Notes under the pieces: model-generated | Told to the model about the DNA's origin: nothing | The model's database searches: none | Seen by the model: the letters and a program-made list of their open reading frames with translations, nothing else | In this document: positions 1,386 through 60,556 of the stretch, one piece after another | Numbering within the stretch: position 1 is the stretch's first letter | How the letters are laid out: every line of letters begins with the position of its first letter | Origin: a virus | Lineage: Duplodnaviria; Heunggongvirae; Uroviricota; Caudoviricetes | IMG/VR virus record: IMGVR_UViG_3300044678_002996 | Location: 17,301 to 81,300 of that record | Length of the DNA stretch: 64,000 nt | Reading direction: 5' to 3' (one strand) | Position numbers and translations under genes: made by a program

Positions 1386-1459
1386 AGCGATCTAACGGGA
1401 TCGAACCGTCGTGACACGGGATTGAAAGCCCGCCGCTATACCATACAGCTCTAGATCGC
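1386..1459 (-). tRNA. tRNA with atypical predicted 8-nt anticodon loop (CUUUCAAU); identity uncertain (UUC-Glu-like or UCA)
   Basis: Perfect 7-bp acceptor GCGATCT/AGATCGC. D-loop contains GG. T-arm is GACGG-TTCGATC-CCGTT. Only the stem GCGGG/CCCGU pairs consistently, leaving an 8-nt loop. Confidence 0.65.
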
Positions 1460-1690
1460 AAAGGGATGATATAGTGCGTTGCAAAATATACAACTTGTCT
1501 CGATGTAGTTAATCACGTTAATCAACTAGTCGTCTATCACTATATTCCCATCACCCCTCAGGTCGCTCAGTAACTAGATGTTAGTTAAAATATCCCGGAA
1601 TCCTCGGGGCAAGGTGCGCCTTGTATAGGCGTGCTAGGGAATGCCTAATATTTTGGAAACATTTTAATCACTGCCCTCAATGAGAGTGAA

Positions 1691-1793
1691 CCGGCGTGGT
1701 AGGGGTTGAACCTACATATTACTTTGGGTTAAGTACTTTCCCATTTCATCTCGACTTTGGTGGTCGATGCGTTTACTATTTCGCCACACGCCA
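1691..1793 (-). tRNA. atypical tRNA-like gene (about 103 nt) with a roughly 35-nt extra arm; anticodon loop CACCAAA (CCA, Trp-like, A33)
   Basis: Acceptor TGGCGTG/CACGCCG (7 bp, U1-G72). D-arm GCGA...ACGC. Anticodon stem TCGAC/GTCGA. Canonical T-arm GTAGG-TTCAACC-CCTAC. Insertion lies between the anticodon and T arms. Confidence 0.4.
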
Positions 1794-1817
1794 AATTGCC
1801 CTTTCGGGCGGAAACCT

Positions 1818-2144
1818 CTAAGTTTTTAGCCAGTCTTGTACGTCCTGTAGACTAACAATATTTGTGGAGCCCCATATGAATGTTGAAATCTTACTATGTA
1901 ATCTCTTAACATCAAGTGGCTTTTCAGTCACCTCAGCGCTAGATTTAGGGCGGCCCTTTAGGAACGCCATAGCCAAATTAGCTAATCTAGCTTCAGGGCG
2001 AACCTTAAGCATACGGTGATAATGTAGGTTGTTTTTCGCCCCAACATCATTTGTCCGCCTAATTTCTTTCCTGATTATACCAGCTTCCGCCGCCAAAGAT
2101 TTGATGTTAACTCTTGCTCTTTTTATTGCCATTTTGTACTTCAT
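1818..2144 (-). CDS. hypothetical basic protein
   Basis: 108-aa ORF that follows the tRNA cluster. Confidence 0.4.
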   Translation of the reverse strand: MKYKMAIKRARVNIKSLAAEAGIIRKEIRRTNDVGAKNNLHYHRMLKVRPEARLANLAMAFLKGRPKSSAEVTEKPLDVKRLHSKISTFIWGSTNIVSLQDVQDWLKT

Positions 2145-2249
2145 TGTATTTACCCTTTTGAAAAATTGAAGAAAGAAAGAACTTAAACTATCTTCAATTA
2201 GGGCGGCGATTTATTGCATTCACATGAACTGCTTCATATTAATATCCTT

Positions 2250-2441
2250 TCATTTGTAAAGTTCTATTGGGACTTTGTATGTATGCTTGATATCTACGAC
2301 AATCAGTTTTGTAATGTTTGGCATTTCTTCGAGAAATTTACGCACGGCGTCTTCTAGGGTTGATTCATCCGCGTCTACAAAACTAAATCCCTCGGGGTTA
2401 GATGGGTAGTTTGCTTCGTACATGAAAATATACTTATTCAT
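2250..2441 (-). CDS. hypothetical protein
   Basis: 63-aa ORF, co-directional with neighbours. Confidence 0.3.
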   Translation of the reverse strand: MNKYIFMYEANYPSNPEGFSFVDADESTLEDAVRKFLEEMPNITKLIVVDIKHTYKVPIELYK

Positions 2442-2647
2442 ACGTTACAGCACCATGAGCCATCGCAATCCTCTTCGGTATTACTCCAACCCAGCTCCTC
2501 TAAAATACTCACATCTTCTTCCGATACATCTACATCTGTCTCGAACATATAGATGATATCGTGTTCCGCCGAGCAGACGTACTGGTTATCACTGTTATAA
2601 TACTTCTGCAGAATTTGCATACCTTTGATGATATTTGATGTTTTCAT
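2438..2647 (-). CDS. hypothetical acidic protein
   Basis: 69-aa ORF with a 4-nt overlap onto the downstream gene (translational coupling). Confidence 0.3.
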   Translation of the reverse strand: MKTSNIIKGMQILQKYYNSDNQYVCSAEHDIIYMFETDVDVSEEDVSILEELGWSNTEEDCDGSWCCNV

Positions 2648-2778
2648 TTTACTCTTTCTTTTCTGGCCCCGGTGGCTTTATATCATAAATCTTTTCGTAT
2701 TCGCGTTGTTCTTTTTTAGCTAGGTAATAATACCTGCAATTTAGACATACTATCTTGGGGCTGAGAAATGCCCAATCT

Positions 2779-3219
2779 TCAGTTGTTTTGCAGTATGGGC
2801 AAACTTTTACCATCTAAAACCTGTCTTCCATGGGTCATTTTAACAGTGTCGCCGTCTGGTGTGACCTCATACCAAATATCTTCCCACGGGCCCCTAAAGG
2901 TAAGGGCCCAAGTGTCACTATGAGATACAACCCTATGCACATTAGTGCGGGGTGTAAACTTAGGCCAGAAAGACGGCCCAAAATTTTTCTTTTCGCCCTG
3001 ATATTTCTCTTCAGTAACAGTGCCCCTCAGGAACCACGTCAGGGCATTAAACGCGTGGGAGTGATAGTTCTCGCGTGACCCCTTCTTGAAGTGTAGTAGC
3101 CCTATGGAGAATAACGCCTTCCACTCTATCAGGAAGTATCCCGTCACGCCAGATTCTTTTCCGCCGTCGAATTTCTTGTAGAAAAATTTCGGAATCCACC
3201 TGTGTTTAAAGAGACTCAT
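2779..3219 (-). CDS. hypothetical protein
   Basis: 146-aa ORF. Confidence 0.45.
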   Translation of the reverse strand: MSLFKHRWIPKFFYKKFDGGKESGVTGYFLIEWKALFSIGLLHFKKGSRENYHSHAFNALTWFLRGTVTEEKYQGEKKNFGPSFWPKFTPRTNVHRVVSHSDTWALTFRGPWEDIWYEVTPDGDTVKMTHGRQVLDGKSLPILQNN

Positions 3220-3397
3220 TCTTCAGCCCCATAACAACTTTCAAGACATTCCCAAGCGTTTGGTAAAGCGTCCCAAACTCCCAGAGGAGCCCCTTGGGGC
3301 ACCTCAAGAAGCAGGTAGAGACAATCCTCCCCATTTACGATACGTTCTGGCAAATTTATTCCGGCCCGCATTGTTTGATATGAAAATCTAAGTAATA

Positions 3398-3685
3398 TCA
3401 TTTTATTTCCCAGTCAAAAATACAATCACTATCAAAGTCAAGTACATCTTCAGGTGTTAGTCCAAATTTTTTCATGGCAAGAACAAATTCCTCTTTTATA
3501 AGCTTATGTCCGCCCAGATCATCTCCGTCAACATATGTACTTTCCCAAACCTCTTTCCACGTGCCAGCGTCGTCGTCAAACTTATAAATCTGCAAATAAG
3601 AATATCCGGGGTCGTAGTAATCATCCCCATAATCAGAACTGCATCCACCAGTCTGTAACTTATACTTATTCATTTTTCTCTCCAA
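3398..3685 (-). CDS. hypothetical acidic protein
   Basis: 95-aa ORF rich in D/Y/G. Confidence 0.4.
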   Translation of the reverse strand: MERKMNKYKLQTGGCSSDYGDDYYDPGYSYLQIYKFDDDAGTWKEVWESTYVDGDDLGGHKLIKEEFVLAMKKFGLTPEDVLDFDSDCIFDWEIK

Positions 3686-3694
3686 TTAAGTTAG

Positions 3695-3809
3695 TGGGCA
3701 AAGTTGGGTTCGAACCAACGAAATTTGTGGCCTCATGAGCTTATAGCCTACCACACAACAGACACTATCCGAAACCTGTTGTTTGCGTAATTCCTCTCGC
3801 CTTTTGCCC
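3695..3809 (-). tRNA. atypical tRNA-like gene (about 115 nt) with a roughly 40-nt insertion
   Basis: Perfect 7-bp acceptor GGGCAAA/TTTGCCC. D-arm GCGAGAGGAATTACGC with GG. Canonical T-arm GTTGG-TTCGAAC-CCAAC. Internal stem CAACAG/CTGTTG carries a 14-nt loop. Confidence 0.4.
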
Positions 3810-3991
3810 GTATGCGGTGTGTGAGACGCATCCCTCTTAGATCACTCGTGAGTCACCAACTGTTAGTGGCACCACAAAGCATCACCCGCACTTTCGTTAA
3901 ACATAATTAGGCCCTCTTATACCACATCATACTTCTGATGAAATTAAGAATGGCGTGAAAAGCTATACACACCCCTAGAAAATACATTGCA

Positions 3992-4468
3992 TTACTCATA
4001 TTTCTTGTAAACCCCGTCTGAGCATAACAGAAACATACCCTCGAAAGAAGAAAAATATCCTAGCCAATCTGCGTGGAACCTATCGCTACCAACAAGTTTT
4101 ACCAATTCTTTATAGTCTTGATCAAACTTATTTGTTACATCTCTTTTACAGTATTTGGGCTCAAACTGTAGTCTAAGGACCAACGATGCCACTTGGTCAG
4201 CTTTTTCTTTGCAAAACGGCCCTATATATTGGACATATCCATCCGTCCGCCCAAAGGTTCCCCCATCGCCATAGATAACCGCAAGCACGTAGGACTTATC
4301 CCCAACGGAACCAAACGTTCCATCGGGGTAATCCATCTTCTTCTCAGAGATATCAAACCAGTGATCGTAATGCTCTTCGTGGCTGAAGCCGCTGTACTCT
4401 GTGCCATCGCCTTCATCATGGTCACTACCTTGGCGAGTTTTGTAGTTACACTTTACATAGAATGTCAT
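3992..4468 (-). CDS. hypothetical protein
   Basis: 158-aa ORF. Confidence 0.45.
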   Translation of the reverse strand: MTFYVKCNYKTRQGSDHDEGDGTEYSGFSHEEHYDHWFDISEKKMDYPDGTFGSVGDKSYVLAVIYGDGGTFGRTDGYVQYIGPFCKEKADQVASLVLRLQFEPKYCKRDVTNKFDQDYKELVKLVGSDRFHADWLGYFSSFEGMFLLCSDGVYKKYE

Positions 4469-4472
4469 ATTA

Positions 4473-4967
4473 CTATCCTGAATAAGGGTTATTATAACCT
4501 ACGTCACAACCACAATCTCCCGTGCCAAATGAAAAGCCTCTTGGCGTTCCGCAGCACGGGCATTTTGGCGAATTCTCTTTGTATACTTTCCAGTATTTTT
4601 CTCTAGAGAGACCCCAAAGTCTATACTCTGTTTCATAAAATTCATTAGTCCCTGTACCACATTTATTGTCTGGGTGTTTGTGATATTTAGAACCTAATAG
4701 TTTGATGTCAATCTTATTACTTTGTCGTGGCCTAGCCGCAGAAAACTTGCTACAAACATGAAGTGTTTGATGATTATGCGTAAATATTTCATCATATAGA
4801 CGCCACTTGCCCTTATGATCTTTGTGCCAGTATAATCCACCTTTGCCGCAGAATTTACAGCTTTTTGATGATGGCCCAATGTTTTCTCTATGATCATATC
4901 CTACATCGTAGTTATCATCATATTCTTCGCCAAAGAAACCATCACCATTTAAGCCACCGTAAAACAT
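4473..4967 (-). CDS. hypothetical Cys/His-rich protein (possible metal-binding)
   Basis: CKFCGKGG...HVC and CPCCG...CGCD clusters. Confidence 0.45.
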   Translation of the reverse strand: MFYGGLNGDGFFGEEYDDNYDVGYDHRENIGPSSKSCKFCGKGGLYWHKDHKGKWRLYDEIFTHNHQTLHVCSKFSAARPRQSNKIDIKLLGSKYHKHPDNKCGTGTNEFYETEYRLWGLSREKYWKVYKENSPKCPCCGTPRGFSFGTGDCGCDVGYNNPYSG

Positions 4968-4972
4968 TTTGT

Positions 4973-6619
4973 TTATCCTTCACAACTCTTACACTCGTTA
5001 ATAGATCTACTCAAAGCTAAGGCTGGGTTGACGCCCTTCTGATAGTAAAATCCCTTAACTCCATTTTCCCACCCGAAGATAAGTAATTGACTTACATCCT
5101 TAGGGGGCGTTTTAGGGTGAATCATCAAGTTAAGGCTTTGGCCCTGATCAATATATTTTTGTCGTTGGGCCGCCAATATAACAACTTCCTTCTGGGAAAT
5201 TTCCCCGAATGTCTTGAACACATTTTTATCATGTTCATCCAAGAAGTCTAGATGTTGTACAGACCCACCGTTAGTTAGGATAGACCGCCAAGTTTCCTCA
5301 TTGTCCTTACTTTTTTCAGCAAGTAATTTCTTAAGGTAAGGGTTTTTGTAGGTGAAGCTGCCCTTTGCCAATTTTTTAACAAAGAAGTTCGAGTCAATGG
5401 GTTCAATGGTTTCACTGACTTGGCCCAAAATAAATGCACTTGATTTAGTTGGGGCAACTGCCATTCTTGTAGCCATTCTTTCGCCTGTTCCCACCATTAA
5501 CTCAGGTTCGCCGTACAACTCAGCCAACTCTTTGGACGCTTCCAGCGTCTGTTGATTAAGTGTCTTGAAAATTTCACCATTAAGATGTTTAGCTTCCATA
5601 CTCTCAAAAGCAATATTCTTACTTTGAAGTAGAGAGTGCCAGCCCAAAACCCCCAAACCTACTGCCCGCTGTCTCTTGGCAAAGTTGTGGGCCGCTGCCA
5701 TATACTTCAGGCCTACAGTCTTATTAATGTACTCGGTAGTCACCGTATCCAAGAAATAAGTCAGAACCTTAACAGCGTCTGTGTCTTTCCACTCATCATA
5801 ATGCAGTAGATTCATCGAGGACAGAACGCAGACAAATGATTCGTCGTCTGTGGCGGACAGATGTATTTCATTACAGAGGTTGCTGGCATGAATACGCTTG
5901 CCCTTGTTCTTATAAACCAGTGGGGCGTTGTTGTTAGAAGTGTCGCTGAAGAATAAGTAGGGATACCCACTCTCAAATCGCTTCTTGATGATCGCCCCCC
6001 AAACTCTGATTTTTTCTTTATCCTTATTCAGTAGTCCTCGCATCCATTCGTCGGAGATACAAACCCCAATAGAGAGATCCTGAATTGGGTTGCCCTCACT
6101 TCGGATTTTAAGGAACTCAAGAATATCTGGATGTTCTACGGGCAGATAGACAGCCATAGATCCCCGCCTAATATTAGACTGAGAAATTACAGAAGTCATC
6201 TTATCAAATAATTCCATGAAGTGTACTGGCCCACTGGACTCTCCACCACTTGAAATCTTCGCCCCACGGGCACGTAAGTCCCCAAAGTAGGCTGACGTTC
6301 CAGCCCCGTACTTCGTCATAAAACCTGTCTCAGCCACCTTGCTGAGAATAGAATCCATTGTGTCATTGATGTAACTTCCGTTACAAGAACACGGTAAACC
6401 TCTATCCAGCCCATAGTTCGCCCATACTGGTGAGCTTAAGGAAAACCATCCTCTACTCATGTATTCTTCGAACTTCGTCGCGTAACCCTCTATATTGAGA
6501 TATTTCTCTGCTGTTTTTGCAATTTCCAGAATTCTTTCTTCAGCAGTTTGGTCTTCGCGGACGTAGCCCCGAGAAAGGAATTCGCGTGATTTTTGATTTA
6601 GCCAGTAGTACTTATTCAT
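4973..6619 (-). CDS. nrdA: ribonucleotide reductase class I large (alpha) subunit, class Ib (NrdE)-like, N-terminally short
   Basis: Active-site NLCNEI motif. SGYPYLFFSDT and AVYLPVEHPDILEFL align to NrdE/NrdA core blocks. C-terminal CxxC tail (CKSCEG). No ATP-cone region present. Confidence 0.9.
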   Translation of the reverse strand: MNKYYWLNQKSREFLSRGYVREDQTAEERILEIAKTAEKYLNIEGYATKFEEYMSRGWFSLSSPVWANYGLDRGLPCSCNGSYINDTMDSILSKVAETGFMTKYGAGTSAYFGDLRARGAKISSGGESSGPVHFMELFDKMTSVISQSNIRRGSMAVYLPVEHPDILEFLKIRSEGNPIQDLSIGVCISDEWMRGLLNKDKEKIRVWGAIIKKRFESGYPYLFFSDTSNNNAPLVYKNKGKRIHASNLCNEIHLSATDDESFVCVLSSMNLLHYDEWKDTDAVKVLTYFLDTVTTEYINKTVGLKYMAAAHNFAKRQRAVGLGVLGWHSLLQSKNIAFESMEAKHLNGEIFKTLNQQTLEASKELAELYGEPELMVGTGERMATRMAVAPTKSSAFILGQVSETIEPIDSNFFVKKLAKGSFTYKNPYLKKLLAEKSKDNEETWRSILTNGGSVQHLDFLDEHDKNVFKTFGEISQKEVVILAAQRQKYIDQGQSLNLMIHPKTPPKDVSQLLIFGWENGVKGFYYQKGVNPALALSRSINECKSCEG

Positions 6620-10703: not shown

Positions 10704-11366
10704 TCATTTTAGAAACTCCAGTATTTGGTCTGATGGGCAGTATAGTACAGATTGTGTCGCAGCGGCCCCAGAGGATTGGACCCCCACTAACTTATCGTTG
10801 TAGAGTACAGCTCCGCCGCTTAGTCCGTCAATAACTTTGCCCTTTAATTTAAGGCACGGAAATCCATTTTCCTTGGTAATGACTTCTTTGTAATTTGGGT
10901 TAGTCATCTCATTCTTAATCATATCTTCAGACAGGGCATACCCATATGAGATATAACCCCGCTCTGCCAGAACAGCAAATTGGGCTAACTCCAAGAATCT
11001 AATATTCTCTTGAGGTTTTTCTGGAAAGTCAAGAATCATTATGTCTCGCTCTGAGTCAAATTTGGTGACTTGCAGCTTATATCTTGCGGACAAGTGTTTG
11101 TCAATGCTGTAGATTGAGCAATTAACTTCTTCTACTTTCTCGGAACCTAAGAGGGCATGCCAACAGGTTATTACTCTAAGTTTTTCAGAATGCTTAATAA
11201 CTGTGCCCGAGAACATTTCTATTCCTGCGGATTTCTCCACAGACAGCTTTACGTGGGGCCAGAAATCTTGAGCAAAAGATTGGGAGGCTAAAAGTAAAAC
11301 AAGCAGTAATGTCCTAATAATCATATCTTGCTTCCTAGTGGTTCTGGGATTGGGCAGTGCCCCCAT
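10704..11366 (-). CDS. secreted trypsin-like (S1) serine protease
   Basis: Signal peptide IIRTLLLVLLLASQSFA. His-motif TCWHAL. Ser-motif GLSGGAV (GDSGGP-like). Confidence 0.6.
   Translation of the reverse strand: MGALPNPRTTRKQDMIIRTLLLVLLLASQSFAQDFWPHVKLSVEKSAGIEMFSGTVIKHSEKLRVITCWHALLGSEKVEEVNCSIYSIDKHLSARYKLQVTKFDSERDIMILDFPEKPQENIRFLELAQFAVLAERGYISYGYALSEDMIKNEMTNPNYKEVITKENGFPCLKLKGKVIDGLSGGAVLYNDKLVGVQSSGAAATQSVLYCPSDQILEFLK
11086..11100 (-). repeat. co-oriented motif copy (TTGCGGACAAGTGT variant)
   Basis: Member of the T-run + GCGGACAATTGT family. Lies inside the protease gene and reads HLSAR in frame. Confidence 0.4.
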
Positions 11367-17297: not shown

Positions 17298-17587
17298 TAA
17301 CATACGAACAGTATCTGGCAGAGTGTACTAGCAATGATACACTGCTATTTACCGGCAAGAGAAATAAAAAGAATAAGCCAATCAAAGAGAAGAGATTCAA
17401 CCAGACTCGTGATTTTATCGGCAAAGAAATTGCTAATAGTAATTACTCTACCAGAGAAGAAGCAGAGTCTGATCTCGAAATTAAAATACAGAAGATGGAT
17501 CCAGTAACTTTTTTCCTTTTTAGAGTCCTGATAGGATGGTTAATAGGAAAATTGTTAGATGGATATTTCGGCCTAAGAGACCAATAA
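17294..17587 (+). CDS. hypothetical protein with C-terminal hydrophobic helix
   Basis: 97 aa, 4-nt overlap coupling. Confidence 0.45.
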   Translation: MITYEQYLAECTSNDTLLFTGKRNKKNKPIKEKRFNQTRDFIGKEIANSNYSTREEAESDLEIKIQKMDPVTFFLFRVLIGWLIGKLLDGYFGLRDQ

Positions 17588-29379: not shown

Positions 29380-29461
29380 CTCGGGCTAGGGGGATTCGAA
29401 CCCCACATGGTATATATACCAGCATTTTATTGCCGCGTCTAACTTTCGCCATAGCCGAGGA
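29380..29461 (-). tRNA. degenerate tRNA-like element (canonical T-arm, imperfect acceptor, no clean anticodon arm)
   Basis: T-arm GGGGG-TTCGAAT-CCCCC. Acceptor halves pair with one mismatch. The central part does not fold into a standard anticodon arm. Confidence 0.4.
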
Positions 29462-35408: not shown

Positions 35409-36713
35409 TTAAGATAAATCTTCGGGGTCAACAAATCCAACCTGCTCTTGGGCCAGACCGGCCAAAAGCTTATAGTCATACGACTTATTCTTGAATACAG
35501 TCCAGTGGGCGCCGTTTGCCCGGACACATACGCCTTCACGAATATGGCGGAAGCACACAGTAGAAGGGCCATCAGATAAGAATCTTACACGGGTGACCAA
35601 TTTCTCTAGGTCACCATCATATTTGAATCGCTCAATTACTGGGCAATACTTAATACCGTGGGCCGCACACCACGCTGTGATGTCATCCCAAGGGAGGTCT
35701 ACTTCGGAACCGTCATCCAGCACGTAGGAAATGCGATATACATAAACATCGAATTCCCCAGATGGTATGCCGTAGGTGTAGACCATTGATTCACCGTATT
35801 GCTTACGGAGATCCTTATCAGTAACCTTTTGGCGAGGAGCGATTGTCTTCTGGTCCTCATATCCCACAACCTCGAAGTAAACCTGCATTTGAGGCTTGAG
35901 GTATGGGGTTATGCGATCAGCCACTTTCTTTCTCCAAGATTCGGAGAAATATCCGCCCGACGATTTATCAGTCAGGATAGTGCGTCGCGTACCGTTATAT
36001 TTTCGGAGAACACGATTATCAATCTTAAAGAAGCGAGACAGAAGTTTCTCGATAATAGTTAGTGGGCGGAGTTCGTAGCCCCACGCTACTCGTTGTGAGG
36101 TTCCTTCCATCTTCTCTGTTATGACAATGTCGTCTCCGACTTTGAACTTATGGGCATTCTTTAAGAAGTGATTAGTATCCTTATGCTCTGGAAAGATATG
36201 GACAGGTTTGTCTTTCCCAAAGAATCGGATCTTCAGCTTTTCTAAAAAGCCTTTTGGCTTCTTTCGTGACTCTCGTTGTTTAGCCCGAAGTTGTTCGGGC
36301 GATTCGTACTTACAACAGATTGGTATATCCTGTATTGTATCTACGTAATCGCCCTCTGACAACTTGGATATGTCCACCCCAGCTTTTTCCAGATAAGAAA
36401 GAGGTGCCCAAAAACCATAGCTCTTAATGCCCTGAAATGTTTGGGCCCGCACCTTGCGATTCGCATCAAACATCCCGCCCAGATTCTTGCCAGTTTCCGG
36501 GCATTTGCGACGGATTAAGTCGTTTGCCAGACATAACTCTGGCGAAAGCTGTAAGTCGCAAGAGAAGTAAATGCCCAATGTATTATCTAGGCACGACTTG
36601 CTCACAATTACTGTCTCCCCACATACTTCCCCAACAGCCAGAGAATGTACCTCTGGGTTAGGGTGTGGTGTTACTTTTACTCGGGCAATTATTCCGCTAT
36701 GGTTTTCAGACAT
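35409..36713 (-). CDS. ATP-dependent RNA/DNA ligase-family nucleotidyltransferase (Rnl2-like core with N-terminal extension)
   Basis: Motif I ITEKMEGTS (compare Rnl2 KIHGTN). Motif IV-like EGVCVRA. Motif V-like FKNKSYDYK. Confidence 0.45.
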   Translation of the reverse strand: MSENHSGIIARVKVTPHPNPEVHSLAVGEVCGETVIVSKSCLDNTLGIYFSCDLQLSPELCLANDLIRRKCPETGKNLGGMFDANRKVRAQTFQGIKSYGFWAPLSYLEKAGVDISKLSEGDYVDTIQDIPICCKYESPEQLRAKQRESRKKPKGFLEKLKIRFFGKDKPVHIFPEHKDTNHFLKNAHKFKVGDDIVITEKMEGTSQRVAWGYELRPLTIIEKLLSRFFKIDNRVLRKYNGTRRTILTDKSSGGYFSESWRKKVADRITPYLKPQMQVYFEVVGYEDQKTIAPRQKVTDKDLRKQYGESMVYTYGIPSGEFDVYVYRISYVLDDGSEVDLPWDDITAWCAAHGIKYCPVIERFKYDGDLEKLVTRVRFLSDGPSTVCFRHIREGVCVRANGAHWTVFKNKSYDYKLLAGLAQEQVGFVDPEDLS

Positions 36714-45353: not shown

Positions 45354-46951
45354 TCTAATCTCCCCCTTATTTCGCCCAAAGTAGTTTTGTTAAACTGCAC
45401 GCCATTTTCAAACATAACTTTCAACTCACCACCAAGTTCTTCCTCAGGTGTGCAATCATTCTTAAGGGTTAGTTTTCCACCCTTATCTTTGACTACAGCA
45501 AGCAAGCCCTTCGCAGATTTTTTATGGCCACCTGTTTTAGGATCTTTGAAGATAGGCTTAGCCTTCCCATCAATTTCCACATAGGTAGCCTTACAGGCGA
45601 TACTGAAAGTATCACGAGTATTGTACTGGTATGTGTAAGATCCCACGCCGAATACTACGTTTGTGGATGCGAAACCCTTGTGTTTCAACCGATCACAAAT
45701 TTGTTCACATCGAGTGAAAGTAATACTGTCACCATAAATTAGCCCAATATGTGGATCTAATTCAAGATACCCCTTTGAGTTTTTGGTCGCCCCAAAGGTT
45801 TCAGCAAGGATCTGAATAGAGCCCTTCACTTCATCCTCAGTAAGTTCTTGACAGGTTATATCAAAATACTTATTATCTGATGTTTTAACAGCGTCGAAGG
45901 TCTCGGTGCCGTCGTTATTCCACAACTTAATATGGAACGGAGTTCTTCTTACCAACTGAAGATAATCGTCAGAGGTTTGTTTTACATTCTTAACAATGTA
46001 CCCAGTCACAATCTTAACTGGGTCACCGCTGTCGGGCCGAATTACGACCTTACCATTACGGGCCATAATCTTAGATTTAAGGGCCGGTAAGATTTTCTTA
46101 AGGACGTTCCAGTAATCCCATGTATCACTTACGATGGACACAATACCCGCAGGATACACATCCTCAATAATTCTGCGGAATGTTTCTTCTTCTGATTCAT
46201 CCCCACCCGCACACATTACACTGTGTTCAGTAGCTGGTACACTACATCCCACCAATTCTTCGTCGATATTCGCCCCGTAGAATTCCTCAAGGAACTCAAT
46301 AGCTGAGACTGTATCCGTCCCGACGAAACTTAGTAGGTGGGCTGCCCCACTAACGTATCCAGTTTCAACGCTACTCATTCCCCGCATGGAGAAGTCGTGG
46401 CACTGGAAATTAACAAACGGGCAGTTGTCGGAAGTCTCAGCGGCGTACTTGGATACCAACTTCTTAAACTGATGGGCGATAGTGGCTGACACGATAGCTT
46501 GCCACATTACCGTCTGAGTCAAGGTTTCGAGGAAGTTCGTGACCCAATAGAATTCATGCTTTGTGTTCACGATTGTCATGAACGGCACTTGAATTGGGCA
46601 CAATGTTCCTTCGGGCAAAGCCTTCAGGCGAATTGGCAAGTAGCCCAAATCGTGCAGACTTTCCATAGTCTTTGTGCTTACTGAGTCTTTGCCAGTAACA
46701 GCGTCCATCATTCGCTTGAATTTTGCAACAACCTTCTCTTTCGGCTGAGAGAAGAACCGCTCATTCCAGTTACGAATGAAGTATTCCTCAACCAGATATT
46801 GCGTGCCGAACACTACGATTGAATCCACGCCTTCCATTCGCGACGAGCGAGCGGTAGTATTGGAATACACCACTTGCGTCTTTGCAGGGTATTGTGGCGG
46901 GTGAGAGAACTTGTATACGTCGGCGAGTAGTTGTGGACTTGGTTTGAACAT
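45350..46951 (-). CDS. nadV: nicotinamide phosphoribosyltransferase (NAMPT/NadV)
   Basis: N-terminal ADVYKFSHPPQYP matches the NAMPT DSYKxTHxxQYP block. 533 aa, typical NadV length. Confidence 0.75.
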   Translation of the reverse strand: MFKPSPQLLADVYKFSHPPQYPAKTQVVYSNTTARSSRMEGVDSIVVFGTQYLVEEYFIRNWNERFFSQPKEKVVAKFKRMMDAVTGKDSVSTKTMESLHDLGYLPIRLKALPEGTLCPIQVPFMTIVNTKHEFYWVTNFLETLTQTVMWQAIVSATIAHQFKKLVSKYAAETSDNCPFVNFQCHDFSMRGMSSVETGYVSGAAHLLSFVGTDTVSAIEFLEEFYGANIDEELVGCSVPATEHSVMCAGGDESEEETFRRIIEDVYPAGIVSIVSDTWDYWNVLKKILPALKSKIMARNGKVVIRPDSGDPVKIVTGYIVKNVKQTSDDYLQLVRRTPFHIKLWNNDGTETFDAVKTSDNKYFDITCQELTEDEVKGSIQILAETFGATKNSKGYLELDPHIGLIYGDSITFTRCEQICDRLKHKGFASTNVVFGVGSYTYQYNTRDTFSIACKATYVEIDGKAKPIFKDPKTGGHKKSAKGLLAVVKDKGGKLTLKNDCTPEEELGGELKVMFENGVQFNKTTLGEIRGRLE

Positions 46952-47440: not shown

Positions 47441-47690
47441 CTTCTATGAATTGTACTGTTGTGTAAGTTCTTGTGGGAATTACGATTTCTTTGCCGTCAA
47501 GTAGGAAGATCTCAGTGCCTTTGTCGCCCCAACCCATATACTCGGCCCCAAAGTATGAGAACGAGCGGTCTTGACAACAAGCCATGATATGCTTTACAAC
47601 GTGATCAGAAGTGTGGCAGATACATTTACATGGATAATTAGGATCCACATAGATTATATCATATCTGTGTTTTGTCTTTAGGTGTTCCAC
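47421..47690 (-). CDS. hypothetical Cys/His-rich small protein
   Basis: 89-aa ORF. Confidence 0.3.
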   Translation of the reverse strand: MEHLKTKHRYDIIYVDPNYPCKCICHTSDHVVKHIMACCQDRSFSYFGAEYMGWGDKGTEIFLLDGKEIVIPTRTYTTVQFIEVGKCDG

Positions 47691-48448
47691 ACCCGTCCCT
47701 TTCGAGTGTAAATCTGTTGGTAATGACCCAAAAGGGCCCCTAACCCTTGTGAGAATATTCCATGACTTACATAAAGGATCAGCTTATTGGGACCGCAGTG
47801 GGCGACTGCTTTCGCCACCTCGATGAATGTACGTCCTCCGTCGCACAGGTCGTCGCATACGAGAATGTTTTTCCCAAAAGGTATGTTGGGTACGATAGTC
47901 TCAAGAATATGTCCAGTAGCCTCGTCGCGTATTTTCTCTGCGACGATGAATTCTTTGGCGGACAATTGTGAGTATCTCGCCGCCGCCCCTTTGTCGGGCA
48001 ATAGCAGAAGGTCAATTCCCTCGCGTTCGACAATGTCCGCAATATTCTGTTGTGGCAGTGTGTTCACCAACTTAATATTGCGGTATTGGTCGAAGAACGC
48101 AGGATTGTGGACGTCGAACGTATGAAGTTCACATTTGCCCATCATCTCAGCAAAGAAATGTAGAGCCCAGCAAGATGTGTTTACAATACCTTTATCCTGC
48201 CTCGCGTAAGGAAGATATGGGACGTCCCAGATAACTAGCTGGTTGGCGGGTTCCTTTATCTTCATCCTTTCTACGAAGTAGAGCAGTTGGAAGATGTGCA
48301 GCAACTCATACTCGTCCTCAAATTCCCAGTGAATTCGCAGTACGTCTTCCTTAAAGGCATTTAGTAGCCCTTCGGGCTGTTTCCAGACTTGAGATGTCTT
48401 ATCTGGAAATCTTGTAACGTTCAGAGTAAATCCGTTTATATGTATCAT
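47678..48448 (-). CDS. type I phosphoribosyltransferase-fold protein, PRPP-synthetase-like (Prs/Adps-like)
   Basis: PRPP-binding loop ILVCDDLCDGGRTF. Length 256 aa. Adjacent to nadV. Confidence 0.55.
   Translation of the reverse strand: MIHINGFTLNVTRFPDKTSQVWKQPEGLLNAFKEDVLRIHWEFEDEYELLHIFQLLYFVERMKIKEPANQLVIWDVPYLPYARQDKGIVNTSCWALHFFAEMMGKCELHTFDVHNPAFFDQYRNIKLVNTLPQQNIADIVEREGIDLLLLPDKGAAARYSQLSAKEFIVAEKIRDEATGHILETIVPNIPFGKNILVCDDLCDGGRTFIEVAKAVAHCGPNKLILYVSHGIFSQGLGALLGHYQQIYTRKGRVWNT
47951..47969 (-). repeat. co-oriented motif copy TTTGGCGGACAATTGT
   Basis: Inside the Prs-like gene. Encodes QLSAKEF. Confidence 0.45.
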
Positions 48449-58106: not shown

Positions 58107-58108
58107 AA

Positions 58109-58136
58109 GTGGACCCGGCGGGAATTGAACCCGCGT
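58109..58136 (-). other. tRNA 3'-half fragment (T-arm + 3' acceptor strand) lacking a 5' partner
   Basis: GCGGG-TTCAATT-CCCGC followed by CGGGTCCA. No matching 5' acceptor strand within tRNA distance. Confidence 0.3.
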
Positions 58137-58341
58137 CTTGCATAAAAAAGAGCAATAGATTCGTTCACAAGTTTAGGGGCGAACGCCCCGGTTCAAGTGG
58201 ATATTACAGAACGTCCTCAATTTGGATAACAGGGCAATGAGGGGCCCCGAGACTATGCAGCCTGAGCAAAAGTTTTTGCTTTTATTTTTTAATCGACTTT
58301 TAAAGTGGCCGGTCGATCAACCACTACCTGCATCTATTACA

Positions 58342-58746
58342 CTATTTACCAATCAATACCTGTCGGGCCCGTGGTGGCACTTTGTCTGCCTTTTCAAGAT
58401 TACATAATTCACATAACACTTGTCTATTATCTGAAGAGTCTTTCCCTTCTCTTGCTATAGGAATTATATGGTCAACTGTCATAGCGACCAAATCTGCGGA
58501 GACTATCATAATACTCGGAAGAGACTTGTTAGTTCGTGGTTTGCCCACAAATATATAGTCGCCTCTACGAGGGCAATAAGAACATTTAGCCCCCATATTG
58601 ACCACCTGTTTGATTCTCCTTAATTTCCTTCCAAGTGATAGTTCACGAAATACTGCGATATCAAACGGGATTATTCTGTAATCAGAATATTTGATTAACA
58701 GATCAATTTCGGAAGAAAATAGGTTGTCGATACAAGTATTGTCCAT
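58342..58746 (-). CDS. HNH endonuclease
   Basis: CSYCPRRG...VDHIIPIAREGKDSSDNRQVLCELCN (HNH with Zn-ligand cysteines). Confidence 0.7.
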   Translation of the reverse strand: MDNTCIDNLFSSEIDLLIKYSDYRIIPFDIAVFRELSLGRKLRRIKQVVNMGAKCSYCPRRGDYIFVGKPRTNKSLPSIMIVSADLVAMTVDHIIPIAREGKDSSDNRQVLCELCNLEKADKVPPRARQVLIGK

Positions 58747-60040: not shown

Positions 60041-60556
60041 CTAGCTGTATAGCTCAAAGATATCAAGGGCCAGATTTCTCAGCTCTTGTTCAAGCTCCAC
60101 GTCAACTCCAGTAAGACACTCGTCTAACAGAAGAATAGATTCCTTGGCGTAGACAATAGCGAATCCGTCGCTTTCGGGCATTTCGTAGAGGTTATCAATT
60201 CGGTCGATTAGCTTAACAAGCTTTGATTCCGTCCGAATACCCTTGATTTTTTCCCGATTAGCTTTCTTTCGTTCAGCCCGATTGCCTTTGACATCTTTGT
60301 CGTTAGTGAGGTCTTCTACATATCCCTCTACTATGTGCCCAAAACAGAGGGCGATTTCAGACAGTTTTACACCGCAGTCTTCTACAACATCATGCAGAAA
60401 GGCCGCTGCTACCAATTGATTTGTAGCCATCCCATGAGTAGCTACGCGGCCCGCGACGCGAATCGGGTGTGTAATGTAGGGCCTGTTACTGTATTTACGC
60501 TTTTGCCCTTTGTGTTTTTCGGCGGCAAATTGGGCTGCATCAATGATTAATTCCAT
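60041..60556 (-). CDS. HD-domain small alarmone hydrolase ((p)ppGpp hydrolase, SpoT/Mesh1-like)
   Basis: AEKHKGQKRKYSNRPYITHPIRVA...AAAFLHDVVED matches the RelA/SpoT HD hydrolase N-terminus (HxGQxR...PYIxHP...HDxxED). Confidence 0.65.
   Translation of the reverse strand: MELIIDAAQFAAEKHKGQKRKYSNRPYITHPIRVAGRVATHGMATNQLVAAAFLHDVVEDCGVKLSEIALCFGHIVEGYVEDLTNDKDVKGNRAERKKANREKIKGIRTESKLVKLIDRIDNLYEMPESDGFAIVYAKESILLLDECLTGVDVELEQELRNLALDIFELYS

Follow-up and report, generated by a model that had tools for sequence, protein, structure and literature searches.

Over-long tRNA-like genes are known from Lak megaphages, in which tRNAs carry 'enigmatic introns' that hardly vary among their carriers and that one genome may have while a related one lacks them (Devoto et al. 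2019, PMC6784885). Here we describe two tRNA-like RNA genes, e1 (103 nt) and e2 (115 nt), within positions 17,301 to 81,300 of the IMG/VR virus record IMGVR_UViG_3300044678_002996; this stretch of 64,000 nt, hereafter the window, belongs to a large genome of an uncultured phage, in which nearly all genes lie on the minus strand. Like the Lak genes, e1 and e2 carry extra sequence that is near-invariant and present or absent among relatives. However, the Lak tRNAs were called intron-containing with an assignable anticodon, whereas e1 and e2 deprived of their extra sequence are not canonical. The two cases are set apart by description, and the Lak phages differ from this phage in lineage and GC content.

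Bacterial class II tRNAs (Leu, Tyr) share with e1, e2 and their relatives an acceptor stem of 7 bp, a D stem of 3 bp with the pattern UGGCG(A/G)AA...ACGC, a canonical T arm and additional sequence separating the anticodon stem from the T stem. In contrast to these tRNAs, the e1/e2 family has no canonical anticodon arm, its insert or variable region comprises 35-120 nt rather than 10-24 nt, e1 carries G73 and no G18G19, and family elements are not called by ARAGORN. tmRNA and YrlA RNA are also built from a tRNA-like acceptor/T-arm module and a non-tRNA module, and they likewise occur in phage tRNA arrays, but tmRNA has G3.U70 (G3-C70 in the family), no D stem and a tag open reading frame (ORF) with pseudoknots, and the ends of YrlA RNA lie in its Ro-binding stem, while those of e1 and e2 form an acceptor stem. 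The Rfam tmRNA and YrlA (RF02553) models gave no match to e1 or e2 up to E = 10. Engineered tRNA scaffolds, in which the anticodon arm of the frame is swapped for other RNA, are still processed and stable. These scaffolds and the minimalist tRNA-Leu (PMC9976931) resemble the e1/e2 frame but are laboratory constructs.

Phage tRNAs have further been described as counter-measures to tRNA nucleases (PMC10264068, PMC11464382, PMC11555353). T5 tRNA-Lys directed against PARIS, tRNA-Tyr against retron Eco7 and anticodon-loop variants resemble e1 and e2 in being accessory, variable among relatives and placed amid counter-defence genes, and altered anticodon loops are common to both groups; they are, however, functional decoders replacing cleaved host tRNAs, whereas e1 and e2 appear unable to decode. 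The stable RNAs species 1 and 2 of phage T4 (rnaC, rnaD) are small, lie in the phage tRNA cluster and are matured with the tRNAs, and we claim no relation of e1 or e2 to them. Searches of literature text and of sequence strings retrieved no description of a natural phage counterpart, the Lak-phage introns being nearest, and phage cases are absent from a review of non-canonical tRNAs. e1 and e2 work like tRNA mimics, yet depart from each known mimic in its defining features and from canonical tRNAs in two. The explanation we prefer, with confidence at about an even level, is that both are genes for stable, non-decoding tRNA-shaped RNAs and belong, as divergent members, to a phage family that descends from class II tRNAs.

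Structure and conservation of e1 and e2

The initial annotation had pointed to over-long tRNA-like genes at 1691-1793 and 3695-3809 with 7-bp acceptor stems, textbook T arms and similar D arms, and with an extra hairpin arm in the first and a 14-nt loop followed by an extra arm in the second. Sequence and fold bear out each of these features, to which we add the minus strand (the strand of the neighbouring tRNA genes and ORFs), membership in one family and a D arm of class II type (Table 1). In both genes the acceptor stem is followed by a spacer of two bases and a D stem of 3 bp, GCG(A)...(A)CGC, then by a hairpin in the place of the anticodon arm (hairpin A), a second hairpin (hairpin B), a single-stranded linker and the T arm; CCA is encoded by neither. 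The minimum-free-energy folds correspond to a cloverleaf with an extra arm. A strict scan for cloverleaves of 94-131 nt with a 7-bp acceptor, a D stem and a 5-bp T stem bearing GTTCRANNC detected exactly these two elements in the window versus none in 300 dinucleotide-preserving shuffles. As in a canonical tRNA, both have an acceptor stem of 7 bp, a D arm and a T stem of 5 bp with a GTTCRANNC loop. Neither has the canonical anticodon arm (5-bp stem, 7-nt loop, U33, purine 37), the canonical variable region (4-5 or ~10-24 nt) or the usual total of 70-95 nt, the variable region measuring 35 nt in both, to which e2 adds an enlarged loop.

ARAGORN, run with or without intron mode, called neither gene, and nor did Rfam at gathering thresholds over the whole window. 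Under permissive filters the Rfam tRNA model recovered e1 at exactly 1691-1793(-) with 39.1 bits (gathering score 29), its alignment placing a 32-nt insertion in the variable region, while e2 gave no match up to E = 10. At neither locus did a standard finder return an ordinary tRNA of 72-90 nt with different limits.

Related contigs (L-numbered) were retrieved via the small ORFs adjoining e1 and e2. In L098/L099 and L114, e1 is found again in the same position, directly following the ORF108 homologue. It is identical to the L114 copy at 102 of 103 positions (99.0%), a T-stem U-A becoming U.G there, and to the L098 copy at 95 of 105 (90.5%); for the same two contigs, identity is 89.9% and 83.9% in ORF108 and no more than 59-61% in the downstream spacer. 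The acceptor changes between e1 and L098 are compensatory (GGCGUG/CACGCC to GGUGCG/CGCGCC), hairpin A is extended in L098 from 5 to 6 bp by a matched insertion of C and G, and the 35-nt variable region shows one change relative to L098 and none relative to L114. e2 is conserved at 115 of 115 positions in both L113 and L117, although the flanks in L113 are unrelated to those in the window, the adjoining ORF158 is 91.2% (L113) and 75.6% (L117) identical, and the homologous spacer upstream of e2 in L117 is 77.6% identical. Within this spacer a conserved extended -10-like motif, TGGTATAAG (3916-3924, minus strand), lies ~105 nt upstream of e2 and may be its promoter. The conservation of e1 and e2 is on a par with that of the neighbouring true tRNA gene (98.6-100%). 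By these alignments, both genes, extra sequence included, are under purifying selection as strong as that on true tRNAs.

Comparison by blastn synteny delimited one indel block around each gene (Table 1). The e1 locus is occupied by a 110-nt paralogue in L113, L115 and L116 and by an unrelated 123-nt tRNA-like gene, sited exactly at the place of e1, in L105/L106 (L105 6372-6494, L106 504-626). In these genome comparisons e1 and e2 thus behave as optional modules, discretely present or absent. Exact and degenerate pattern scans for e1 and e2 found nothing in viral contigs and chance matches only in reference bacterial genomes.

Related elements in viral contigs

R1, a covariance model made from two sequences only, e1 and its orthologue in L098, scored ordinary tRNAs at no more than 19.4 bits. 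It retrieved the L113 paralogue with 56 bits, two peat-metagenome contigs (L107/L108) with 45 bits, L085 3314-3423 with 33 bits, the L113 copy of e2 with 28.5 bits (E 1.7e-5) and L005 18221-18331 with 24 bits. e2 thus joins the family through its identical L113 copy under a model made from e1 and its orthologue, e1 itself being a member by construction. Members of the family, as described by R1 and a broader model R2, share the acceptor stem, U8-G9, a GCG(A/G)A...CGC D arm, hairpins A and B, a linker of ~7-10 nt, the T arm and covariation. In an alignment of eight family sequences 99.5% of the cells are standard pairs and 18 of 24 pairs change on both sides (acceptor 6/7, hairpin A 5/5, hairpin B 4/4, T stem 3/5). 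None of 500 shuffles reached this level, and sliding the partners by 1-3 columns left 36-43% paired; the alignment was fitted to the model, which favours structure, and the effect size and the e1/L098 compensations seen by eye agree with it. G3-C70, U8-G9, GCG(A/G)AA in the D arm and the T loop are constant. Under R2 the nearest ordinary tRNAs were tRNA-Leu and the window's own tRNA-Tyr, at 31-32 bits, and these model scores therefore place the origin of the family in class II (tRNA-Leu/Tyr-type) tRNAs.

Hairpin A is the part that differs most plainly from a tRNA. It consists of 5 bp with loop CACCAAA in e1, 6 bp with loop CGCCAAA in L098, 5 bp with loop CCUAAUG in L113/L115, 5 bp with loop CUAUUAG in L085, 6 bp with a 5-nt loop in L005, 7 bp with a 14-nt loop in e2 and 7 bp with a loop of at least 21 nt in L107. 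U33 is near-universal in decoding tRNAs. Across the four 7-nt loops position 33 is A, G, C and U, as expected where no decoding constraint applies, and the family as a whole is without a decoding anticodon arm.

To extend the comparison, viral contigs were scanned with the family D arm, 50-80 unspecified bases and the T loop, which yielded at least 120 stretches, with 80 loci among the matches listed. R2 gave at least 119 matches at E < 1e-4 on these stretches; at least ~90 of them were 95-170 nt long and scored 35-54 bits versus 22-32 bits for ordinary tRNAs, and ARAGORN overlapped almost none of the over-long matches checked. From these contigs at least 69 distinct over-long elements with closed acceptor stems were extracted, and 39 of the 69 share the frame AGUCAGG-UGGCGGAAUGGUAGACGC-(34-120 nt)-ACAGGUUCGAAUCCUGU-CCUGACU-A. 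Its two halves have mean identities of 97.8% and 93.5%, whereas the inserts are 49% identical, versus 48% for shuffled inserts. A73 is found in 64 of the 69 elements, U48 (the U before the T stem) in 63 and a canonical anticodon arm in two; the constancy of acceptor stem, T stem, A73 and U48 was not set by the scan pattern. Each insert type is 93-100% conserved between contigs, inserts matched only their own orthologues in the ~2.2 Mb compared, and a double change from G-C to A-U in one subfamily supports a putative long-range helix inside the insert. The elements occur several to a contig, in large tRNA arrays that also hold tmRNA, RNase P RNA-like and YrlA-like sequences. No cultured phage with both halves of the AGUCAGG frame was found, and Rfam 15 holds no family for these elements beyond weak RF00005 matches.

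E. coli leucyl-tRNA synthetase (LeuRS) requires A73, A15-U48, G18G19/A20a and D/T-loop contacts and needs neither the anticodon nor the variable arm, a tRNA-Leu without both arms still being charged (PMC9976931). The required features are exactly retained by the common AGUCAGG frame, which therefore could be leucylated without reading a codon. The full leucine identity set is also kept by many family members, the L113/L115 paralogue at the e1 locus among them, so that aminoacylation without codon reading could apply to these as well. e1 and e2 are without it and are therefore divergent members, for which no charging is claimed. The preference of the leucyl/phenylalanyl (L/F)-transferase (G3:C70, C72, A4:U69, C68; PMC4105747) does not fit the common frame. 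It is possible, though in our judgement doubtful, that phages carry widespread, uncatalogued natural 'tRNA-scaffold' RNAs, in which a constant tRNA-Leu-type frame, processed and possibly leucylated, bears swappable, individually conserved cargo in place of the anticodon and variable arms. Several such RNAs would be encoded per genome in tRNA arrays, with e1 and e2 as divergent members, and the cargo would set decoy, adaptor or aptamer specificity in phage-host conflict.

Other unusual RNA genes were seen in these contigs. Over-long tRNA-like genes at L101 7213-7340 (128 nt) and L105 6372-6494 were not matched by the family model, and L091 5775-5966 (192 nt) combines a perfect tRNA-Leu D arm with an insert of ~110 nt. 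Inside phage tRNA arrays lie an RNase P RNA-like sequence (L185 1366-1600; 49.7 bits, gathering score 100) and a YrlA-like sequence (L151 11258-11367; 35 bits, gathering score 69). Between two tRNA genes of L098, 51 nt (10711-10761) match 23S rRNA 1095-1146 (Rfam bacterial LSU; 28 bits, E 4e-5); absent from the window, this segment may represent the L11-binding/GTPase-associated centre hairpins as a phage rRNA-fragment mimic.

Decoding, splicing and other readings

We consider it unlikely that e1 and e2 are working decoding tRNAs that tolerate their expansions, with e1 being a tRNA-Trp(CCA) whose U-free loop and bulky arm guard against host anticodon nucleases. This reading draws on the 5-bp stem and 7-nt loop of e1 hairpin A, with CCA at 34-36, A37 and G73, to which the L098 orthologue adds A1-U72; together we take these to be the bacterial tryptophan identity set. 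The A1-U72 pair of E. coli tRNA-Trp is mentioned in PMC9976931. In addition, ARAGORN called tRNA-Trp(cca) in 480 deletion variants of e1, the L113 paralogue with UAA and A73 is Leu-like, and anticodon-loop changes are known to let phage tRNAs evade nucleases (PMC10264068). However, only one of the four 7-nt loops has U33, the others having A, G or C there, the stem of L098 has 6 bp, and e2, L005 and L107 are unable to decode, the first two with loops of 14 and 5 nt. Moreover, 67 of the 69 elements of the wider class have no canonical anticodon arm, and no known class II arm resembles the 35-nt variable region with its single-stranded linkers of 7 and 9 nt. e1 alone could be charged or even decode, and this is the main rival to the explanation we prefer.

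That e1 and e2 are pre-tRNAs with short protein-dependent introns of an undescribed bacterial or phage type, maturing to RNAs of ordinary size, appears improbable. The initial annotation had offered tRNAs with small non-group-I insertions as one reading, and the phage-tRNA introns of Devoto et al. 2019 (PMC6784885), highly conserved and found in some genomes but not in their relatives, provide a precedent; an RNA ligase is encoded in the window. To follow this up, every single 5-65-nt deletion of e1 and e2 was run through ARAGORN. As a positive control, removal of 32 nt from a 104-nt gene of L081 (L081a) produced a perfect 72-nt tRNA-Phe(GAA) with U33 and A37. This contig carries tandem over-long tRNA genes of 104 and 109 nt (4833-4936 and 4938-5046), which have a 30-nt insert motif, AAAACGAGAU...AUCUCUAACAGCAU, in common. 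By contrast, deletions rescued e1 only to a Trp-like cloverleaf still carrying A33 (in L098, G33 and a 6-bp stem), and no deletion turned e2 into a credible tRNA, the sole result being a poor 'Tyr(ata)' model with a mismatched stem. Bulge-helix-bulge (BHB) motifs (3-nt bulge, 4-bp helix, 3-nt bulge) were not above chance, with none in e1 and two in e2 versus 1.6 expected, neither delimiting the insert. A BHB intron is therefore not supported, and neither is a group I or II intron, for which at least 200 nt are needed versus the ~35 nt of the insert and for which Rfam gave no match up to E = 10. The inserts of e1 and e2 share no motif with that of L081, and no splicing endonuclease domain was detected among ~40 window proteins scanned. 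Short intron-like inserts thus exist in this phage group, as they do in Lak megaphages, and e1 and e2 are a different case.

A third possibility, conservation at the DNA level because e1 and e2 serve as recombination or attachment sites, or as ends of small mobile cassettes using tRNA-like sequence, deserves little credence. tRNA genes are classic integration sites, each of the two genes lies in a presence/absence block of ~336-339 bp, and e2 is identical in L113 in spite of unrelated flanks. Compensatory changes in four helices, however, point to selection on RNA pairing, the conserved unit matches the tRNA-like boundaries rather than repeats or target-site duplications, and no inverted or direct terminal repeats were seen around either block.

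Scarcely credible are decaying tRNA pseudogenes or miniature tmRNA-like rescue RNAs: the failure of standard finders to detect e1 and e2 and the ORF-like strings that follow a conserved GUC in several members (GAG AUG AAA UGG GAA AGU ACU UAA in e1) would fit, but near-perfect conservation, above that of the flanks, and covariation rule out decay, which the initial annotation had also considered, and the invariant G3-C70, unrelated 'tags' of 2-7 codons, the missing in-frame stop in e2, a normal tmRNA already encoded in the window and the lack of an Rfam tmRNA match at either gene mark the strings as chance.

Of the three readings offered at the outset, then, regulatory tRNA mimicry is the one we favour: the acceptor, D and T parts are conserved and covary, and the anticodon region is non-canonical and variable across the family. 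Several observations weigh against it. The tryptophan identity set of e1 fits a real, if odd, tRNA-Trp. With respect to leucine, e1 has G73 and no G18G19, and e2 has A73 and GG but A8, G14 and C48, so that the identity set is not kept in the former and is incomplete in the latter. Retention of the insert is read only from the absence of a recognisable splicing signal, and the intron-like inserts of L081 mean that some undescribed splicing activity may be present in the group. As for the wider class, D arm and T loop were fixed by the design of the scan, the inserts are not notably stable folds (median z -0.6), and what ties e1 and e2 to the AGUCAGG frame is architecture and covariance-model scores rather than a close match in sequence. 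Finally, no antisense target of e1 was found in the window, the best duplex reaching -29.8 kcal/mol versus a shuffle mean of -30.1. Neither this duplex energy nor the inserts, which match only their own orthologues, lend support to a spacer-like or antisense function.

Genomic setting and proposed role

Table 1. Coordinates of e1, e2 and further features of the window
Feature	Position	Strand	Details and basis
e1, whole 103-nt tRNA-like RNA gene	1691..1793	(-)	RF00005 39.1 bits, same boundaries; models R1/R2; orthologues L098 10352-10456, L114 10984-11086
e1 acceptor stem, 5' strand UGGCGUG	1787..1793	(-)	pairs with 1692-1698 CACGCCG; U1.G72 pair; sequence
e1 D arm GCG-AAAUAGUAAA-CGC	1769..1784	(-)	class II type, without G18G19; also in L107/L108
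e1 hairpin A, UCGAC-CACCAAA-GUCGA	1751..1767	(-)	at anticodon-arm position; A33, CCA at 34-36
e1 expanded variable region, 35 nt	1716..1750	(-)	holds hairpin B UGGG-N11-CCCA (1725-1743)
e1 T arm GUAGG-UUCAACC-CCUAC	1699..1715	(-)	sequence, fold, Rfam match
e1 discriminator G	1691	(-)	sequence
e2, whole 115-nt tRNA-like RNA gene	3695..3809	(-)	cloverleaf fold; identical copies L113 864-978, L117 873-987
e2 acceptor stem, 5' strand GGGCAAA	3803..3809	(-)	pairs with 3696-3702 UUUGCCC
e2 D arm GCGA-GAGGAAUU-ACGC	3785..3800	(-)	sequence, fold
e2 hairpin A, 7-bp stem ACAACAG/CUGUUGU, 14-nt loop GUUUCGGAUAGUGU	3755..3782	(-)	sequence, fold
e2 hairpin B region, 28 nt, GUGGUAGGCUAUAAGCUCAUGAGGCCAC	3727..3754	(-)	sequence, fold
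e2 linker AAAUUUC after hairpin B	3720-3726	(-)	sequence, fold
e2 T arm GUUGG-UUCGAAC-CCAAC	3703..3719	(-)	sequence, fold
e2 discriminator A	3695	(-)	sequence
Indel block with e1 and 230 nt downstream	1461..1796		absent from L100; blastn synteny
Indel block with e2 and ~180 nt upstream	3674..4012		absent from L098, L114, L115; blastn synteny
Candidate third member, 78 nt, D arm UGGCGAAAGUUAGACGC	29381..29458	(-)	R2 24.1-24.2 bits; weak evidence
tmRNA, normal	58107-58370		Rfam
HD_4 hydrolase, NAMPT/phosphoribosyltransferase, ThiF-JAB, RNA ligase set	60041-60556, 45350-46951, 47678-48448, 39734-41560, 35409-36713	all (-)

The candidate third member of the family, with two short hairpins and the T arm GGGG-UUCGAAU-CCCC, lies inside a 141-nt gap between ORFs, and a relative has a gap of 138 nt at the matching place; the candidate was called by neither ARAGORN nor Rfam. 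The window further encodes both ribonucleotide reductase (RNR) subunits, NAMPT, a phosphoribosyltransferase, an RNA ligase, a ThiF/JAB pair and, sitting among tRNA genes, a RelA/SpoT-type HD_4 hydrolase. The set of HD_4 hydrolase, NAMPT, ThiF-JAB and RNA ligase looks like counter-defence and tRNA-repair functions, and with the tmRNA included the window is rich in genes whose functions are likely counter-defence or translation-related. Ordinary tRNA genes for Gly, Tyr, Gln and Lys were detected by ARAGORN and Rfam, together with one tRNA with an 8-nt anticodon loop. No close DNA relative of the region was found among GenBank phages, the nearest isolate proteins being ~40-44% identical to those of the window. 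In Variovorax phage V45v66, the sole isolate with a nearby DNA match, the 40 kb examined hold no tRNA-like genes. Synteny based on RNR (80 loci) was mostly uninformative.

Several features next to e1 and in the related contigs were recorded alongside. The tRNA with the 8-nt loop (1386-1459, minus strand; ARAGORN 'ttca', Rfam tRNA 32 bits) keeps the loop N-UUUCAA-N in L098, L100, L101, L102, L103, L113 and L114, the flanking N.N never pairing, and may be a UGA reader or a quadruplet reader. The 231 nt between it and e1 (1460-1690, minus strand) fold unusually well (z = -3.75; 0 of 200 shuffles) and are merely 59-61% conserved in L098 and L114, with an indel of ~60 nt. Upstream of the ORF108 homologue, L098 (9808-9877), L101 (4258-4327), L102 (114-183) and L103 (3652-3727) carry a conserved 70-nt tRNA-like gene, absent from the window, whose 'anticodon' loop varies in length (ARAGORN 'ct' or 'gcat'). 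Asn GUU, Lys CUU and His GUG tRNAs of 92, 84 and 87 nt in L085 (275-366, 460-543 and 11313-11399) combine class I anticodons with class II-like long variable arms. In L105 (1200-3830) the RNR large subunit is split by a LAGLIDADG intein that the window copy does not have.

If e1 and e2 specify non-decoding mimics, as we prefer to think, they would be transcribed together with the neighbouring tRNA genes, and the transcript would be excised like a tRNA by RNase P and 3' processing and supplied with CCA. The family retains what gives a tRNA its L-shape and is recognised during maturation (an acceptor stem of 7 bp, the U8/D stem, the canonical T loop and an unpaired 3' end without encoded CCA), and a lineage-specific module stands in for the anticodon arm and variable region. 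The extra 35-40 nt would be retained without splicing, and the RNA would act in trans via this module, the tRNA frame conferring stability and access to tRNA-binding proteins. The most likely role, and the weakest step of the proposal, would be in phage-host conflict over tRNAs or translation. Our first choice would be a decoy, or a competing ligand, of a host factor that binds or attacks tRNAs, because of the accessory distribution, the counter-defence-type neighbours and the many host systems that attack tRNAs; an adaptor or a scaffolded aptamer are further candidates.

These genes are invisible to ARAGORN and to default Rfam, yet are among the most strongly conserved sequences of the region, and viral metagenome contigs hold many of their relatives; the wider class may well merit a description of its own. 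Should e1 and e2 be decoding after all, they would reveal an unexpected tolerance of the ribosome for expanded tRNAs without U33, and should they be spliced, a new bacterial or phage route of tRNA splicing. If they are non-decoding mimics, they would add an RNA layer to the use of phage tRNAs as weapons against tRNA-targeting defences and would constitute a natural counterpart of the engineered tRNA scaffold.

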